A stretch of 26,747 nt of DNA, from positions 1-26,747 of IMG/VR virus record IMGVR_UViG_2778261499_000013; one strand, given 5' to 3'. A program made the position numbers and the translations under genes. The stretch is from a virus. Lineage: Duplodnaviria; Heunggongvirae; Uroviricota; Caudoviricetes. Every line of letters begins with the position of its first letter. Position 1 is the stretch's first letter. Of the stretch, positions 1,237-8,265 are shown one piece after another. The notes under the pieces were generated by a model. That model searched no databases. It was not told the origin of the DNA and saw only the letters and a program-made list of their open reading frames with translations.

Positions 1237-3399
1237 TTATTCACATAAAGATATTGATGCCAATATAAACATTGCAAGTTCGTCATATCTTATACCATAA
1301 CTTTCACAAAAGATATCTATATTTCCAGTCATGTGTTCGCGATGCGTTTTATCGTGACACCAAAACCCATACTTACTAGGATCAAGTCCGTGCTTCCTCA
1401 TTATATTACCAACAGTTTGAGCTCCAACACCAAAATGCCACCTAGCACCATCAAATCCCTTTACCTCAACAGAATCCAGCATCTTAAACTTTTTAATATT
1501 ATCTTTTATTTCTAGTGCAGCTTTTTTTTCAGCAACATCAATGTCTGTTAGTTTTGTTTTCAACATTTCATTTGATGTATTTATCATTCCTGTAGTTGCA
1601 TATATTGTTTTATATCTCGCATCCGGCCCACCAATATCAAAAGCATTATCAATTTGTGGTGTAATTTTCCCATAATGAAAGAATAATTCATGCTCACTAT
1701 TACCTATAGCTACAGTATTCTGAGCGGCAATTACCCCACTACCGATAGCTACTGCGTTACTTCCGGTTGATTTTGTATTATCTCCGAGAAGGACGCAGTT
1801 TGTCACATCTGTAGCCTGCTCTGACACGTTACCAGAATTAGAACCTAAAAATACATTGAAAGATCCAGCCGTTACTTTAAACCCTGCATCGAATCCAATA
1901 CCAACATTATCAGATCCTGATGCAGAATATAGCGCCTCGTAACCTATAGCTGTATTATTATTACCTAACGCGTTGAAACCCGACTTAGCCCCTACCGCAA
2001 CACAATACTGGATAGACACCCCCGTAGGAAAACTGGAATTACCGCCACGTAACGCATATTCACCAAAAGCGGTGTTCTCATTACCAGCACTGTTGTGATA
2101 CAAGGCCTGCACACCTGCCGCAGTATTCCCAAATCCTGTTTTGTTATACCTGTTAGTATCATTACCAATACCAGTATTACCGTAGCCTGTTGTGTTTGCA
2201 CATAACGCAAAAACCCCAACCGCTACGTTATCAGAACCAGATACGTTAGCTCTTAGAGAATCAGCACCGTATGCACAATTGTTTTTACCAGTCTTATTGT
2301 TTTCCATAGACTGAATCCCAGACGCGGTATTTGCGTATCCTGTAGTGTTTGAGTGCAAACTCTTCCACCCATATGCGGTATTGTTAGCTCCTACGTTTCC
2401 ACCGCCTAATGAGTCTTTTCCAGCGGAAGTATTAGTATCATTGTTTCCGCTAACATTAAAAATAACGCTTCCTGATTTAACGATGCTGCCACTTCCTGTG
2501 TTTATTACTGATGGATTGGAAGGAATGAAAAATGACCATGAGTCATTTACTGTATGTCCAGTGGTTGAAGAAAAGTTTATCTTCAATCCACTTACGAAAA
2601 AATCCACCCCACCTGCAAGTATTACGATTGGTTGCTGAGATACACTGTCATCGATTGGGTTGTACACGTCTATCGTGTCACGCCATGTAACTCCATTATC
2701 TGTACTGAATTCAAGCTTATCAGGATTTGAAGCTTCTTTTATTCTTACAATTGCATTTAGATCTTGCTGTCCATTGTATATTCCTGACACGGTCATGTCG
2801 TTAACACCAGAGCCAGAATATTTAGTCTGGTAATTAATCACTACTATGCCAGGCCCCCAATATCTCTTATTTAAGTTAATATTATTTACATTATAAATAC
2901 CATCAGGAATGTATATGTCATTGAATTCTGATATCTCTGCATCGTTAAATGCCTGCGTATTGTTTGTTAATCCATCACCAATAGCACCAAAAAAAGTAAT
3001 AGGCTTCGAAACACCACCTATCAATCCTGCTCCACCAGATGATTCAAGCTCCAACCTTAATTGATCCGGCTCATACTTCAACACATTAGGAAAATAGAAC
3101 TGCTGTGCACCATATACATCATAAACAGCCATAGAATGGCCTTGCACAGTTACGAATTTGGCAATCTGTCCGTTATATACAGGGTAACCAGCGGCGTTAA
3201 TGATGATTGGTTGCGAAACAGGAACGTGAGAACCGTCTTCGTTCTCTACATAAACCTGAATCTGGTTTTCAGGATTTACCGGGTCAGTGTCAATTTTACC
3301 GATATAAATTTTTCCATTAGCTACGGCTTTAAAAGAACGAGCCATAGTGAAGAGTTGCGAAGGCATACTCACTACAACATTGGCTGTAATGTCTGTCAT
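1237..3399 (-). CDS. Tailspike/tail fiber: P22 gp9-like head-binding N-domain, Gly/Asn/Thr-rich repeat domain, C-terminal chaperone-like domain
   Basis: 720-aa ORF; N-terminus [46 protein letters not shown] closely matches my recollection of the P22 tailspike head-binding domain; central GNTxxG/NTAxG repeats; C-terminal ~100 aa ([26 protein letters not shown]...) resembles intramolecular chaperone domains of endosialidase-type fibers. Confidence 0.85.
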
Positions 3400-3499: not shown

Positions 3500-4390
3500 T
3501 CAGTAGTTATGTACTGAAGGAGGTAATTCTTTATTCTTAAGTCTCATCCATGCGGAAAGATTCGTTGGTCCGTCTGGCTCATTAATATCAACATCTCGTG
3601 TGTGGTTTATTAAAACGTCTCTCGCCATTCCGATAACATACGAGAACTCATGACCGTAGTCGTAGCATCTGCCGGAATAGTTCGATTGAATTTGTTTTAA
3701 TGCCGGATACAGTTCGCGGAATAATGCCTGTGAGCGGTTGGCATAATCCCATAACCATACAAGGCTGTTTGCTTCTTTTGCAGAAAGCTCGTTTGCTTTC
3801 TTCTCTTGTTTGCCGATTAACTCGCCTTCAAGCACTACCCTGTGGATGTACTCTACGGCCAGCGGGATTTGTTCAATTGAAAGTTCATCAATGCTGTCAA
3901 TACCAAAACGCTGATGAACCATATTGTATGCATCGTCATAGCGAAGTCCTTTCTTTCCTACCAGCATGTTTACTGCATCGCGTAGCGGTGTGCGTTCAGC
4001 TACTGAAGTTTTACCTCCAATAGCCTTCCTCTCTTGTGTGGCAGTAACCATTGCGTCATATGCACGGATAACCTTCAGCGCAAAGGCTGCGCTAATCCAC
4101 ATAGCGTAGGAGTAAACAAGCTCCTTGCACACGTAGGTTCCACCATATCGACCTTTCTTAGAAAGGACGGGATTCTTATTCTGCATATCCGCAGAATTAA
4201 AAATTTCATTAATCAATTCAATAGTTTCATTTCTACGCATGAAGAAAGCTGGCTGATGTTTTTCCTCCTTCCCAGACGCTACATGAAGGTCATTAAGCGA
4301 GTAACGCCCCTCTGAATCCATATGAATCTTGACGTCAGAAATGATGATGCTATTAGTGCAATTTACAGTTGACTTTGCTAAGCTTGACAT
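3500..4390 (-). CDS. ant: Antirepressor-like protein with KilA-N domain
   Basis: ORF with KilA-N-like N-terminal region ([36 protein letters not shown]); sits where P22 ant sits (downstream of arc, upstream of tailspike). Start uncertain: ATG at 4390 (AGGT 10 nt upstream) versus TTG at 4456 overlapping the upstream stop. Confidence 0.65.
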
Positions 4391-4452
4391 ATCAATAATA
4401 CCTCGTAAGTTTTGTTGATACCGAAGCCCTGACTGTTCCAGCAGTTGGGGCT

Positions 4453-4722
4453 TCAACGTTTTTCCACTTCATTTTGAATTTGCTTAAGTAGCATATTTGT
4501 CTCGTCAAGCCTCTTGTTAATACGGTCAAGGCTTTCTACTAAATCGTTATGTGCATGTGATACTTCGTAATTTGAGACTGATTTTTTTTCCTCTATCGTC
4601 TTTGTCAATCGTTCCCCTGATTGATACATATTGATTAACGATGTAAAAATCACGAGCAAGCAAACTACAATGATTGCGCCAGACAAAAATTGTAAAGAAC
4701 GATCAAGCAATGACACCTTCAT
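4453..4722 (-). CDS. Small membrane-anchored coiled-coil protein inserted between arc and ant
   Basis: 89-aa ORF; its ATG overlaps the arc stop (ATGA); hydrophobic segment [21 protein letters not shown] followed by a charged, heptad-like C-terminal region; no family recognised. Confidence 0.6.
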
Positions 4723-4877
4723 ACCGTAATCCCCTCTCTCTTCAGGCTGTCCATCACTCGCTTGTAAATCTCAGAGTTAACAGATCGCCCGTTCTCTTCA
4801 GCTACCTTGCGTACCAAATCCAATACTTCTTTAGGCCACCGCAAATTGAACTGCGGCATTTTGCTCATTCCTTTCAT
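4719..4877 (-). CDS. arc: Arc repressor (ribbon-helix-helix)
   Basis: Below the 60-aa ORF track cutoff; translated by hand: [52 protein letters not shown] (52 aa), near-identical to P22 Arc as I recall it; GAGG Shine-Dalgarno upstream. Confidence 0.9.
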   Translation of the reverse strand: MKGMSKMPQFNLRWPKEVLDLVRKVAEENGRSVNSEIYKRVMDSLKREGITV

Positions 4878-4891
4878 GTTCACCTCACATT

Positions 4892-4912
4892 ATAGGTCCA
4901 CCGTGGACCTAT
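4892..4912. promoter_or_regulatory. Mnt operator (perfect 21-bp palindrome)
   Basis: ATAGGTCCACCGTGGACCTAT is a perfect palindrome containing the P22 Omnt core AGGTCCACCGTGGACCT. Confidence 0.85.
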
Positions 4913-4940
4913 TGAGAATATAGTAGAGTGCTTCTATCAT
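4912..4940 (+). promoter_or_regulatory. Pmnt-like promoter
   Basis: Plus strand TTGAGA (4912-4917), 17-bp spacer, TATCAT (4935-4940); overlaps Pant divergently; GGAG Shine-Dalgarno 7 nt before the mnt ATG. Confidence 0.55.
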
Positions 4941-4945
4941 GTCAA
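4917..4945 (-). promoter_or_regulatory. Pant-like promoter driving arc-orf89-ant
   Basis: Minus strand TTGACA (4945-4940), 17-bp spacer, TATATT (4922-4917); the Arc operator fills the spacer and the Mnt operator covers the predicted start site. Confidence 0.7.
4920..4940. promoter_or_regulatory. Arc operator
   Basis: ATAGTAGAGTGCTTCTATCAT is the reverse complement of the 21-bp P22 arc operator ATGATAGAAGCACTCTACTAT as I recall it. Confidence 0.85.
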
Positions 4946-4967
4946 TACACTAACTTGGAGTGATGGC

Positions 4968-5225
4968 ATGGCTAGAGATGATCCGCACTTTAACTTCCGT
5001 ATGCCTTTGGAAGTAAGAGAAAAATTGAAATTAAGAGCCGAGGCTAACGGAAGGTCAATGAACTCTGAGTTATTACAAATCGTTCAGGATGCTCTCTCAA
5101 AGCCATCACCGATTGCAGGCTATCGCAACGAAGCTGAACGCTTGGCTGATGAACATTCGGATATCGTAAAAAATATGGTATTCGAAACTTTAAAAAAACT
5201 TTATGGAAAAGAAAAGAATGAGTAA
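4968..5225 (+). CDS. mnt: Mnt maintenance repressor (ribbon-helix-helix)
   Basis: 85-aa ORF MARDDPHFNFRMPLEVREKLKLRAEANGRSMNSELLQIVQDALSK... matches my recollection of P22 Mnt almost residue for residue. Confidence 0.92.
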   Translation: MARDDPHFNFRMPLEVREKLKLRAEANGRSMNSELLQIVQDALSKPSPIAGYRNEAERLADEHSDIVKNMVFETLKKLYGKEKNE

Positions 5226-5487
5226 TAAAGAGCTTGTTAAAAAATCAAATAACTGTGTCGATGCATATGCTGACTCATTTGGATACTCTTCGTTTGGTGA
5301 CGGTTCCCAGCGATTAGGTTCAATTTCTTTTTTTCATAATGTAACTGAATGGCCTGTTGATGAAAGCGGTGATGTTGAAAACATAAAGTACAATATTGCC
5401 ACCATTAGAATGCCTGAAGAATTGATGCTTAAATTGGCGGACTTCATTCGCGACCAACATTATAAGGCTAAAACAAACGAGTCGTAA
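5218..5487 (+). CDS. Hypothetical small protein with Arc/Mnt-like RMPEEL segment
   Basis: ORF overlapping the mnt 3' end (ATG at 5218 preferred over 5203 by purine-rich upstream context); C-terminal NIATIRMPEELMLKLADFIRDQ resembles the beta-strand and first helix of Arc/Mnt. Confidence 0.5.
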   Translation: MSNKELVKKSNNCVDAYADSFGYSSFGDGSQRLGSISFFHNVTEWPVDESGDVENIKYNIATIRMPEELMLKLADFIRDQHYKAKTNES

Positions 5488-5490
5488 TCA

Positions 5491-5940
5491 ATGATGAAAC
5501 ACGATTATTACGAAGCTCCAAATCTAACTGAAAAGCTTGAACAAGCGGAAAAATCATCATCTTTGTACACAAATCCAATTTCTCAGTCATCAGGAATGTC
5601 TGGCATGAATATGGGCATGCTACAATCAAGTGGTGGTGGAGCTGGGAGTAACAACATGCTTGAGGCTAGGGTTGCACGGTTAGAGGCAGATGTTGAAAAC
5701 ATTAAGACCAATCTATCTGAGGCAAGGTCTGACATCTCTCGTTTGCGTGATATCTCAGCTGATACATCCAGAGATGTTGCGGTGGTCCTGCAAAAAATAG
5801 TAGATGTAGACGAAAAATTATCAAAAAAACCGAGTAAGAGCGAAGTCCAGACATTGATATCTTCTGCAGTAAACAAGCAAATACTATGGACCATAGGGAC
5901 TGGATTTGCTCTTTTAGGGATAGCTAAATATATATTTTAG
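5491..5940 (+). CDS. Hypothetical tail-anchored coiled-coil membrane protein
   Basis: 149 aa; Ser/Gly/Met-rich low-complexity N-terminus, heptad-like central region (LEARVARLEADVENIKTNLSEARSDISRLRDI), single C-terminal hydrophobic helix ILWTIGTGFALLGIAKYIF; starts 3 nt after the previous stop. Confidence 0.6.
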   Translation: MMKHDYYEAPNLTEKLEQAEKSSSLYTNPISQSSGMSGMNMGMLQSSGGGAGSNNMLEARVARLEADVENIKTNLSEARSDISRLRDISADTSRDVAVVLQKIVDVDEKLSKKPSKSEVQTLISSAVNKQILWTIGTGFALLGIAKYIF

Positions 5941-6009
5941 CTCACCTCATCAGCTATCTTCTTGTTCCATTCACTCAGTGCCACTGCAAGGAAAACTAAG
6001 GAGGTTAGT

Positions 6010-6399
6010 GTGAAGCGATTTCTTGCTGGTATGTTTTTATTCATATCTTTTGGGGCTACAGCAGAATGCTGGGTTGTTGGAGATATGCGCGGAATAAGCT
6101 ATTCAGAACGAAATAATTTCCAACCGGAAGAAGATGGTTTTAGTGGAACATTTATCATTAAGACAAGCGGTGAAGATGCCAGCATCACATATTCTGGGAC
6201 GGATGCTGGCGGCATGGCTTACAAAGCATTGTCTAAAAACTCCATCATAGGAATCGGCGCGAATGGCGAAACTCAACGAGTTATCGACTCATGGGTAATA
6301 CATCCTAATGGAACAGTTTTAATGTCGAAAACCATTTCTGGTTATGGAAACATGGATTCAACCAAAGCTTTTGTTGGAAAAGTAAAAAGAAAATGTTAA
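6010..6399 (+). CDS. Hypothetical secreted (periplasmic) protein
   Basis: GTG start 5 nt after a strong Shine-Dalgarno TAAGGAGGT (5997-6005); predicted signal peptide KRFLAGMFLFISFGATA with AxA cleavage site; mature protein about 110 aa with Cys near both ends. The ORF-track ATG at 5962 lacks a Shine-Dalgarno. Confidence 0.6.
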   Translation: MKRFLAGMFLFISFGATAECWVVGDMRGISYSERNNFQPEEDGFSGTFIIKTSGEDASITYSGTDAGGMAYKALSKNSIIGIGANGETQRVIDSWVIHPNGTVLMSKTISGYGNMDSTKAFVGKVKRKC

Positions 6400-6423
6400 C
6401 GATTGAATCCAATTTCCCATACG

Positions 6424-8265
6424 TTACTGCTGTGTTGCCTCAGTGGCAAGCAGCGGTCTGATGGCATTTGCAGCGTTACTTAATGCTCTTTCATAGGCTG
6501 GCGTTCCAGCTTTAGTGTTTGCCAGACGTAAGAGAGCATTCCTTGCTGCTTTGGACTCATACAAGCGCATCATTGCACCGAAACCAGCCTCAAGCCCCAT
6601 TGATACGCCAAGAGTCGCAGTTGCGCCAATCGTCCTTATCCTATTGGCTTGCGATTGCCCCGTCTGAGTTACTACATTTGCGGTGTCTGACCTTGCTGTT
6701 TGCTGTAGAACTTCATGAAGAGCATCAAGCTCTTTCATGTGCTTTCCAGAAAAAATAGTGTTGTAAATTTCACCGCCTGACTGAGATTTCAGCTTATTAA
6801 CTTCAGTGATGAACTTGGCTGGAGAGTCACCGGCCTTTTCCGCTATTTTGCTGACGTAAGCTGCACGCATAGCATCTTTCCCTTTATCATCCAATGCGCT
6901 CCAGATTCGTTTCACGTCAGATGGTTTTCTGCTTAATACAACGGTATTTATAAGTTCAGGACTGGCTTCACTGCTTGCCTTGTTGAGCTTGTTAGCAATG
7001 TTTTTATTAAGCACCTTATTATAAACGTTTGCATAATCGGAATTTGCTTTAAGGTATTTTGCTGCGTCTGATGCACCGAGGTTTTTTGCAACTGCGTTAC
7101 GAAGATCTTTTGACATTGCATTCTCTACCATATTGGTAGCTGCTTTTGCCTGGTTGGGGAAGACCATAGCATCTCCCTGAACATTAGATCTAAATGCTGT
7201 TCTGTGCTGACGCAAGAGATCAAACGTAACATCCAAATCAGTTGCAGGGTTTGCTAATTCTTCACGTAGGTTACGCAAGGATGTAAGCAGGCTTTGATTG
7301 GCAGACGTCCCAAGCCGTTCCTGTCTTGCGATCGCTGTATTCAGAGCATTCATGGTATTTGTGGTATCAACTGCGGCATTACCCATTTTATTGGTGACGT
7401 CATTGATAACAGCGCCAGCGGCATCCTTCCGCCCCCTTAACGTGGTGGTCAGAGATTTCACCACATCATCAGGGTTGTACTCACCAAAACGGTCAAAATA
7501 ATTGCTTACCAGCTTACTACGCGTTGCATATTGCTCCGCACGCTTTGAACCTGTCCCTAGCAAAGCCCCCTCAGCATCCTGAGTAAGGCCACGAGTGAAA
7601 GCATTTTTCGGCGTGATTACATCAGATGTCATAGGTGTCACGCCCATCGATTCTGATGTGGCAATTTTTTTCGCTACTTCTGGCGCAATATCGCCTTTTA
7701 TAGCCGTTATTCCACGACCTATTCCCTTTGCTGCTGCGGAAAGAACACCCTGAGCAGCAAGGTTAACTCCGGCATTTTTAGCTGCATTTTGTGCGAAATC
7801 GCCTTTCTGATTTGCGGCCTCTGCCAGTGATCCAATAGCCATGCTTCCTGCCGTTCCAACTCCTGGAACTAAATACCCGCCAATTGTTTCTCCAGCTTGC
7901 GCATAAGGGTCTGTTGGTCGATCTACTGGACGATAGACATCGTCCAAAACCTTGGGGCCACCAAGCCCCTGGCTGATTGCATTAATCAGACTTGCGCCAC
8001 CCTGCAATACGTCAAATGGTATGTTTACCAGACCACGACCAGCCTGCTCTGCAATTTGCCCTGCACTTTGACCACCTGTGAGCCAATCGCCAGCTTGTTG
8101 CATCAATGATGGTTCTTCACGTGCTGGTTCATTATTGGCCTGATTAACTGTTTGTTGCTGAACAGCCTGACCAGCAAAATACTCATCAATGGCGGTGCCA
8201 ATATCTTCCGTGCTCGTACCATCAGGGAAGGTAAATGTCTTACCGTTTGCAGTTACTTTCATCAT
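6424..8265 (-). CDS. Ejection/internal virion protein, P22 gp16-like
   Basis: 613-aa ORF at the position and size of P22 gene 16 (609 aa), last gene of the late operon; start overlaps the upstream stop. Confidence 0.8.

Follow-up and report, generated by a model that had tools for sequence, protein, structure and literature searches.

A Hex-related gene and an unrelated two-gene module stand in tandem behind mnt in a P22-like prophage of Escherichia coli

The DNA analyzed here, referred to as the window, is a stretch of 26,747 nucleotides (nt) from a virus of the Caudoviricetes (IMG/VR record IMGVR_UViG_2778261499_000013, positions 1 to 26,747). At 100% identity, it matches the E. coli APEC O2-211 chromosome, where it belongs to a P22-like prophage integrated beside tRNA-Arg/yfdC. 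Three plus-strand open reading frames (ORF1, ORF2, and ORF3) lie between the repressor gene mnt, which shows 87% DNA identity to P22 mnt/arc, and the gene 16 homologue (Table 1). The same interval of P22 is annotated as Pmnt-mnt-orf59a-terminator, followed by PsieA-sieA adjoining gene 16; ORF1 and ORF2 occupy the orf59a slot and ORF3 the sieA slot. A first-pass annotation, made from the sequence alone, had described the three genes as a tightly packed, AT-rich cassette co-oriented with mnt at the sieA position. Packing, orientation, and position were all recovered, and the GC content was 0.36-0.42 over positions 5000-6400 compared with 0.44-0.52 in the structural genes. The three genes represent two unrelated mobile modules in tandem, ORF1 with ORF2 on the one hand and ORF3 on the other, which are inherited independently.

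The start codon of ORF1 overlaps the stop codon of mnt (ATGAGTAA), as previously described, and the encoded protein has 89 amino acids (aa) instead of the 90 reported. An alternative ATG at 5203 would extend it to 94 aa, while the start at 5218 is of the type used by homologues and by one RefSeq annotation. No terminator-like structure was detected between mnt and ORF3. The spacer between ORF2 and ORF3 folded no better than shuffled sequence (z = -1.0), with no terminator, and a promoter scan of it returned no sigma-70-like site. Since the genes overlap or abut and no terminator was found, the three genes are probably co-transcribed from Pmnt as one lysogenic transcription unit, in line with the earlier proposal, and read-through from Pmnt into ORF3 is plausible from the layout. 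The three genes would then be expressed in the lysogen.

The distribution of the modules was determined in 5,426 complete E. coli genomes. The full ORF1-ORF2 pair occurred in 4 genomes, and 151 more carried ORF1 and the first ~57 codons of ORF2 at 85% identity before the sequences diverged, giving 155 genomes with the ORF1 module. ORF3 was present in 147 genomes, and ORF1-ORF2 or ORF3 in 298. From this union, about 4 genomes carry both modules, which compares with 4.2 expected under independent assortment. Within this collection, the contiguous trio was found in APEC O2-211 only. ORF3 occurred without the pair in ~143 E. coli genomes, with varied upstream neighbours, and in the phages Emek and ST-35. 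In E. coli A10 it lies directly 3' of a LexA-type repressor gene (helix-turn-helix (HTH) plus S24), and in an O111:H8 strain and Emek it is preceded by opposite-strand genes. Salmonella phage UPF_BP1, three E. coli genomes, and the 151 variant-carrying genomes have the pair and lack ORF3, as do all cI-linked contexts examined. The similarity break between the two modules coincides with the ribosome-binding site of ORF3.

This distribution bears directly on the proposal, made in the first-pass annotation, of a single envelope-spanning system, made up of the three proteins, by which DNA entry is blocked or abortive infection triggered. The tight packing, the co-orientation, the lack of a terminator between the genes, and the predicted compartments (a cytoplasmic factor, an inner-membrane protein, and a periplasmic protein) would all suit such a system, and in Serratia marcescens an ORF1 homologue and an analogous coiled-coil transmembrane (TM) protein are also followed by an unrelated signal-peptide protein. 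Genes of one system would, however, not be expected to occur so widely apart, to meet only at the random rate, to be contiguous in a single genome, and to show a similarity break between ORF2 and ORF3, which makes a three-part machine very improbable. The exclusion or defence role itself appears reasonable by analogy, as ORF3 is a Hex homologue and relatives of ORF1-ORF2 stand behind repressor genes. The interpretation given earlier was thus partly supported.

The Serratia protein mentioned above (L015:5957-6262, 101 aa) sits in the ORF3 slot beside its ORF2-family pair. In four Photorhabdus loci (L021, L033, L037, and L040, ~2115-3386), unrelated signal-peptide proteins of 115-119 aa lie just upstream of the pair. 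Such neighbours may be a coincidence among morons or a recurrent association.

Sequence comparisons place ORF3 in the family of phage 434 Hex and Sf6 gp38. Almost all close homologues are encoded by prophages of Enterobacteriaceae, and most are 129 aa long with the same start; one database protein (P0012) has a frameshifted C-terminus. Searches of sequenced phages with tblastn returned full-length matches of 28% identity in 434, lambda imm434, HK446, HK633, Sf6 (gene 38), and Sf101, and in all six the matched gene is located immediately downstream of cI. The tblastn matches had 100% coverage and E values of 1e-6 to 9e-5, and the 434 record labels the gene “repressor protection protein”, which is Hex. 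BLASTP of ORF3 against Hex likewise gave 28% identity (E 3e-13), and a profile-to-sequence comparison of the two by hhalign gave a probability of 98.1% with an E value of 6e-14 over 128 aligned columns. Both ORF3 and Hex matched phrog_2651 (7.7e-61 and 1.4e-58, respectively), to which Sf6 gp38 also belongs.

The signal peptide and the strong Shine-Dalgarno sequence reported for ORF3 were both recovered (Table 1). The mature part of 111 aa is predicted to fold into an all-beta barrel (AlphaFold2 (AF2), predicted local distance difference test (pLDDT) 86) and contains Cys20 and the C-terminal Cys129. In both ORF3 and Hex, the N-terminus is hydrophobic and leads into (A/S)-E-C-W-(V/I)-V, and a Cys lies no more than three residues from the C-terminus. 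All aligned members of the family carry an N-terminal signal-like segment and a Cys just past the predicted cleavage site, and the conserved Cys pair at the ends of mature ORF3 may form a disulfide. A BFVD Foldseek search with the ORF3 model was uninformative.

Hex of phage 434 is co-transcribed with cI from PRM and is named for heterologous exclusion, as P22 is excluded by a lambda imm434 lysogen of S. Typhimurium and not by a hex mutant (PMC3564112). Deletion of hex led to ~30-fold more spontaneous induction, only in recA+ cells, and a 6-kDa fragment termed “sHex” (E43-N103) blocked the RecA-stimulated cleavage of the 434 and P22 repressors in vitro, while full-length Hex was toxic on over-production (PMC3564112). 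Hex was read in that study as a 158-aa ORF overlapping cI (PMC3564112). Residues E43-N103 of the 158-aa reading correspond to E19-N79 of the 134-aa form (phage 434 hex, L069:2429-2905). sHex starts directly behind the predicted signal-peptidase site of Hex, between ANS and ECW, and covers only about half of the predicted barrel. The conservation of the signal peptide and of the Cys pair argues for the export of Hex-family proteins, which would suit exclusion of P22 at the level of the envelope better than an effect on RecA and the repressor in the cytoplasm. Hex is treated as cytoplasmic in the published biochemistry, and the conserved signal peptide calls this into question.

ORF3 resembles Hex in size, in its signal-like N-terminus, in the ECW motif, in the Cys near the C-terminus, and in its co-oriented position behind a repressor gene. 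It differs as a member of a divergent subfamily and in its location, which is the immI/sieA slot by gene 16, whereas Hex directly follows cI. By analogy with the hex deletion in recA+ cells and the in vitro block of cleavage by the fragment (PMC3564112), ORF3 could mainly stabilize lysogeny, damping RecA-dependent repressor cleavage and spontaneous induction instead of acting as an exclusion protein, and its residence in a P22-like prophage would agree with this. Such a role is considered unlikely, given that the signal-like segment and Cys of all aligned family members suggest export, which would separate the protein from RecA and the repressor, and that the active fragment starts at the predicted signal-peptidase site and covers about half of the predicted barrel only. 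ORF3-type genes also mostly adjoin gene 16 and not c2 or cI, and the original hex phenotype was the exclusion of P22.

P22 SieA and the window cassette share the slot between mnt and gene 16 and the same orientation. P22 SieA has its own annotated promoter. SieA is expressed from the prophage and blocks P22-like phages, with escape mutations in the ejection-protein genes 16 and 20 (PMC10883804). P22 SieA matched phrog_7745 at 9e-109, a family matched by none of ORF1, ORF2, and ORF3, and the SieA motif FxRYPxEAxxFNK is absent from all three; a relationship to SieA, which had been put forward for comparison, was therefore not found in the PHROG searches. SieA is a polytopic membrane protein, whereas ORF3 is a predicted soluble secreted barrel and ORF2 a predicted single-pass tail-anchored coil. 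A Hex homologue in the sieA slot beside ejection-protein genes gives a coherent picture, for which we infer the mechanism.

ORF2 agreed with its earlier description as a tail-anchored coiled-coil membrane protein of 149 aa, as judged from a predicted heptad register over residues 56-116 and a hydrophobic stretch in the last 19 residues. The family of close relatives comprises 57 clusters across the Enterobacterales. A profile search of 1.84 billion representatives returned 1,294 clusters at E<=1e-3 and 97 at E<=1e-10, where the family count of ~1,300 refers to clusters at 50% identity. The matches were mostly proteins of 90-180 aa. Members share the head motif MLEARVA(K/R)LE(A/S)DVE(N/H)IK, followed by a coil of ~40 to >200 residues and one of at least five interchangeable anchor types. 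Stalk length is evolutionarily plastic in this family. In the coil of a 295-aa member in Photorhabdus caribbeanensis (L023:3890-4777), eight 22-residue repeats (ARLTKSENRFDSKLTEVEGKFD) follow one another in tandem. The ORF2 family is covered by no curated Pfam family and by no PADLOC model, the Pfam scan of ORF2 gave weak coiled-coil matches only, and generic coiled coils were all that the ORF2 profile recovered from PDB sequences.

A small partner gene precedes the ORF2 relative in 24 out of 24 tabulated pairs, usually overlapping or abutting its start; the Enterobacter locus L012 lacked a called partner gene. The recurring elements are a variable N-terminus, a Gly-rich linker, the MLEARVAKLE-DVE-IK head, the coil, a C-terminal TM segment, and the overlapping or abutting upstream partner gene. 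ORF1 and ORF2 of the window show all of these elements, and the same layout was found in 23 further loci. The module corresponds to PHROGs 3556 and 12602 on the ORF2 side, with the partners in PHROGs 4231, 5893, 4293, and 12039. The partners belong to four or more unrelated families: the ORF1 type (PHROG 4231), the “EKIAFIFP” type of 140-165 aa (PHROG 5893), which was assigned by eye and is split by BLAST into three clusters (0, 3, and 4), a CxxC zinc-ribbon-like type (PHROG 4293), and the HK544 gp41 type (PHROG 12039). No homology was detectable between ORF1 and HK544 gp41. As all three window proteins fall into PHROG families and ORF3 into the Hex family, the absence of any recognizable family stated in the first-pass annotation no longer applies.

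The AF2 model of ORF1 shows three long beta strands and a C-terminal helix (beta-beta-beta-alpha). ORF1 was also considered as a ribbon-helix-helix protein owing to the Arc/Mnt-like segment noted earlier, and this assignment was rejected. The resemblance is limited to 11 residues (RMPxE..KL), hhalign against Mnt gave a probability of 1.4%, and the Pfam scan of ORF1 gave no match at E<=1 and no ribbon-helix-helix family.

The pairs were found co-oriented and directly downstream of a cI-type repressor gene (HTH with or without Peptidase_S24) in Brenneria, Klebsiella, Enterobacter, Yersinia, Pectobacterium, Xenorhabdus khoisanae, Kluyvera, and an Enterobacteriaceae metagenome-assembled genome. 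The pair also stands directly behind cI in coliphage HK544 and in the Stx1 prophage VT1-Sakai of O157:H7 (ECs2991/ECs2992), which is the rexAB slot. The HK544 record annotates PRM, and the VT1-Sakai record annotates PRM, cI, a 183-aa ORF2-family gene, and the PRM terminator right after it. The interval between cI and N is a recognized hotspot with rexAB and bstA (PMC8585504). Pairs downstream of mnt were found in the window, three other E. coli genomes, UPF_BP1, the 151 variant-carrying E. coli genomes, and Serratia marcescens. In the original VT1-Sakai record, the 93-aa partner ORF (L072:1994-2275) is unannotated upstream of H0053/ECs2992 (L072:2282-2833); it is intact and identical to HK544 gp41.

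Similarity among the effectors was compared within and between partner types for 23 partner-effector pairs with a locatable motif; the Serratia L015 protein lacks the motif and was excluded. N-terminal similarity was 0.284 within and 0.124 between partner types (permutation p ~0.0005), while the coil and anchor gave 0.249 and 0.253, respectively (p ~0.53). In the E. coli variants L064-L067, ORF1 is nearly identical to that of the window (4 differences in 89 residues, counted by eye) and the first 55 residues of ORF2 are almost the same, and a different coil and anchor are joined after the MLEARVAKLE head. The megablast breakpoint in the 151 E. coli genomes is located at window position ~5663, within the head motif. 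The modules have thus undergone recombination at the MLEARVAKLE motif. From the similarity pattern and the joints of L064-L067, the units of exchange are the partner with the N-terminal peptide and the stalk with the anchor. This pattern is what docking of the partner on the N-terminal peptide would predict.

A 14-nt string (GATGTTGAAAACAT), encoding DVENI(K), is present twice, at 5371-5384 in ORF1 and at 5689-5702 in ORF2, and the motif VENIKxN is common to both proteins. A deletion between the two 14-nt repeats would give the in-frame fusion ORF1(1-57)::ORF2(73-149) seen in the database protein P0034 (E. coli SND98_22765, 134 aa). Truncated or fused variants such as P0034 and the frameshifted P0012, found in a mosaic region, could suggest that the ORFs are decaying or non-functional filler of a recombination hotspot. 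This is scarcely credible in view of intact, full-length homologues across genera at 40-90% identity with invariant motifs, the confident fold prediction for ORF3, and good ribosome-binding sites and coupling geometry.

With lambda RexA/RexB, the ORF2-family pairs share the order PRM-cI-pair-terminator (HK544 and VT1-Sakai) and the combination of a soluble and a membrane protein in two genes. No homology to Rex was found (no PADLOC match). ORF2 has a long coiled coil and a single C-terminal anchor, in contrast to the polytopic RexB. The partners are much smaller than RexA and are drawn from the unrelated families listed above. XhlA (PF10779, from the Bacillus PBSX lysis module) is similarly a short coiled coil with a C-terminal anchor and is prophage-encoded. 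Family matches to XhlA were sub-threshold (best 3.4e-5), and the window ORF2 had none at E<=1; the comparison with XhlA-like families proposed earlier thus gave no match for ORF2 itself and weak ones among its relatives, 9 out of 100 family members matching XhlA at E<=1e-3. A relative scored 15.6 bits against a Pfam gathering threshold of 34.7. The context of XhlA is a lysis cassette, whereas that of the ORF2 family is a repressor operon. Against PADLOC-DB 2.0 (systems up to 2023), ORF1 and ORF3 had no match and ORF2 matched only PDC-S66 (E 0.042), so that the comparison with known defence systems gave nothing significant. No functional study of the ORF1-ORF2 module was found in a literature search.

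The pair could alternatively be a toxin-antidote or addiction pair, or a modulator of host membrane physiology or of prophage lysis and induction timing. Two small overlapping or abutting genes, one of them for a membrane protein, are a typical toxin-antitoxin layout, the nearest curated architecture is the lysis-associated XhlA, ORF2 weakly matched PHROG 937 “hemolysin” (0.0019), and the location of some pairs in late or tail regions as well as the lack of a PADLOC match would be in keeping with this. The recurrent place behind cI or mnt is nevertheless the slot of rexAB, bstA, hex, and sieA, and sensor-effector defence modules typically combine a conserved membrane part with a swappable partner and N-terminus. 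Neither point is decisive, and a toxin-antidote or physiological role is regarded as somewhat doubtful.

An exported Hex-family ORF3 next to a separate, Rex-like ORF1-ORF2 module is favoured with modest confidence, and each functional detail with less. ORF3 would be directed by its cleavable signal peptide to the periplasm, adopt a small beta-barrel fold, and, by analogy with Hex, act at the envelope against P22-like phages that superinfect the cell, with DNA delivery as the most plausible target. ORF2 would be a tail-anchored inner-membrane protein with a conserved coiled-coil stalk in the cytoplasm, probably multimeric, on which a flexible Gly/Ser linker and a variable N-terminal peptide are mounted, and ORF1 would be the cognate small cytoplasmic partner of this peptide. 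In a Rex-like logic, the variable partner and N-terminus would be the specificity or sensor part, while the conserved stalk and anchor would act at the membrane. The pair may act at the cytoplasmic face of the inner membrane with abortive infection or exclusion as the outcome. We infer the interaction of ORF1 with ORF2, the localization of the proteins, and any anti-phage phenotype.

Several observations weigh against this reading. The only biochemical study of Hex gives it a cytoplasmic role, the block of RecA-stimulated repressor autocleavage, with no mention of a signal peptide (PMC3564112), and at only 28% identity to Hex the specificity of ORF3 may differ. The hydrophobicity of the ORF2 anchor is moderate (Kyte-Doolittle 19-residue maximum 1.57, at the extreme C-terminus), and scans of ORF1-3 against Pfam, NCBIfam, and PADLOC returned nothing significant. 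The covariation of N-terminus and partner could be explained by simple linkage of adjacent DNA and not by protein contact. Several pairs are embedded among tail or baseplate genes (Photorhabdus, Xenorhabdus stockiae, and Salmonella phage 29485), so the association with repressors is frequent and not universal.

ORF3 is a new member of a known and barely understood family, and ORF1-ORF2 belong to a widespread uncharacterized family with a distinctive modular architecture. Riders on repressor transcripts, namely rexAB, sieA, bstA, and hex, are a classic and poorly understood source of phage resistance. The assignment of ORF3 ties an anonymous gene in ~3% of complete E. coli genomes to the P22-exclusion phenotype of Hex. 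With the family apparently exported, a periplasmic mechanism can be tested directly, and the only biochemical model is called into question. The ORF1-ORF2 pair is a widespread modular two-gene unit in the rexAB slot of well-known phages and Stx prophages and a candidate membrane-acting defence or addiction system. Both modules appear to be drawn from a pool of accessory genes behind prophage repressors, and here they follow one another in the orf59a/sieA slot, which is hypervariable. The slot next to mnt in P22-like phages and the slot next to cI in lambdoid phages share this pool. It is a tentative suggestion that ORF1-ORF2 represents a large unrecognized class of prophage immunity expressed from repressor operons, including that of the Stx1 prophage, in which the N-terminal peptide of a membrane-anchored stalk of variable length docks one of several interchangeable small sensors (beta-beta-beta-alpha, Zn-ribbon, “EKIAFIFP”, and HK544 gp41) and superinfecting phages are aborted or excluded at the inner membrane, and that the Hex family comprises periplasmic blockers of P22-type DNA delivery. 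If true, such blockers would revise the published cytoplasmic model of Hex.

Table 1. Features of the window from ant to gene 16 (positions of the window).
Feature	Position	Strand	Description
ORF1	5218-5487	+	89 aa; predicted cytoplasmic partner protein; PHROG 4231; ATG start at 5218
ORF2	5491-5940	+	149 aa; start 3 nt past ORF1 stop
ORF2 residues 1-55	5491-5655	+	Variable N-terminal region with Ser/Gly/Met/Asn-rich linker at its end; tracks partner type (alignment)
ORF2 residues 56-73	5656-5709	+	MLEARVARLEADVENIKT; conserved head motif and recombination joint (family alignments, megablast breakpoint)
ORF2 residues 56-116	5656-5838	+	Predicted coiled coil; one unbroken heptad register, 82% hydrophobic a/d positions
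ORF2 residues 131-149	5881-5937	+	ILWTIGTGFALLGIAKYIF; predicted C-terminal membrane anchor; nothing follows it (tail-anchored)
Junction of the two modules	5989-6015	.	Megablast: ORF1-2-only similarity stops at ~6015, ORF3-only similarity starts at ~5989-5992
ORF3 Shine-Dalgarno	5998-6004	+	AAGGAGG, 5 nt ahead of GTG 6010
ORF3	6010-6399	+	129 aa; predicted Hex-family secreted protein; PHROG 2651; GTG start
ORF3 residues 1-18	6010-6063	+	Predicted signal peptide; hydrophobic N-terminus, cleavage between ATA and ECW
mnt	4968-5225	+	Repressor gene, 85 aa; head of transcription unit; Pfam Arc 1.4e-27 and Repressor_Mnt 3e-16
Pmnt-like promoter	4912-4940	+	Sigma-70, TTGAGA-17-TATCAT; matches P22-type consensus and annotated P22 Pmnt/Pant arrangement
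Pant-like site	4945-4917	-	Divergent from Pmnt-like site; P22-type consensus
arc	4719-4883	-	immI region
Extra gene between arc and ant	4453-4722	-	89 aa; inside Pant operon; PHROG 27312 (function not assigned)
sar antisense RNA	4392-4458	+	Rfam RF00262, 62.5 bits, E 1e-11
ant	3500-4456	-	immI region; P22 layout
Gene 16 homologue	6424-8265	-	Ejection protein; convergent neighbour marking sieA slot (ORF calls and P22 comparison)

The interval between mnt and gene 16 holds different cargo in other P22-like prophages. In L064, genes for a DUF1902-containing protein of 217 aa and a protein of 85 aa occupy 4483-5630 on the minus strand, and in Emek (L074 2277-3150, minus strand) the interval contains a DUF4065 protein and orf161. 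Both pairs may be toxin-antitoxin or abortive-infection (Abi)-like. A 151-aa multi-TM neighbour in L067 was considered as SieA and rejected, having no similarity to P22 SieA, and coexistence of SieA with the pair is not claimed.

On the other side of mnt, the sar RNA overlaps the start of ant, the same as in P22, and a strong terminator-like hairpin was found at 4423-4454. The protein encoded by the extra gene between arc and ant has an N-terminal TM segment (Kyte-Doolittle 2.79) and a coiled coil. P22 is without a gene at this position, and shorter genes are found there in Emek (orf73) and L064 (68 aa).

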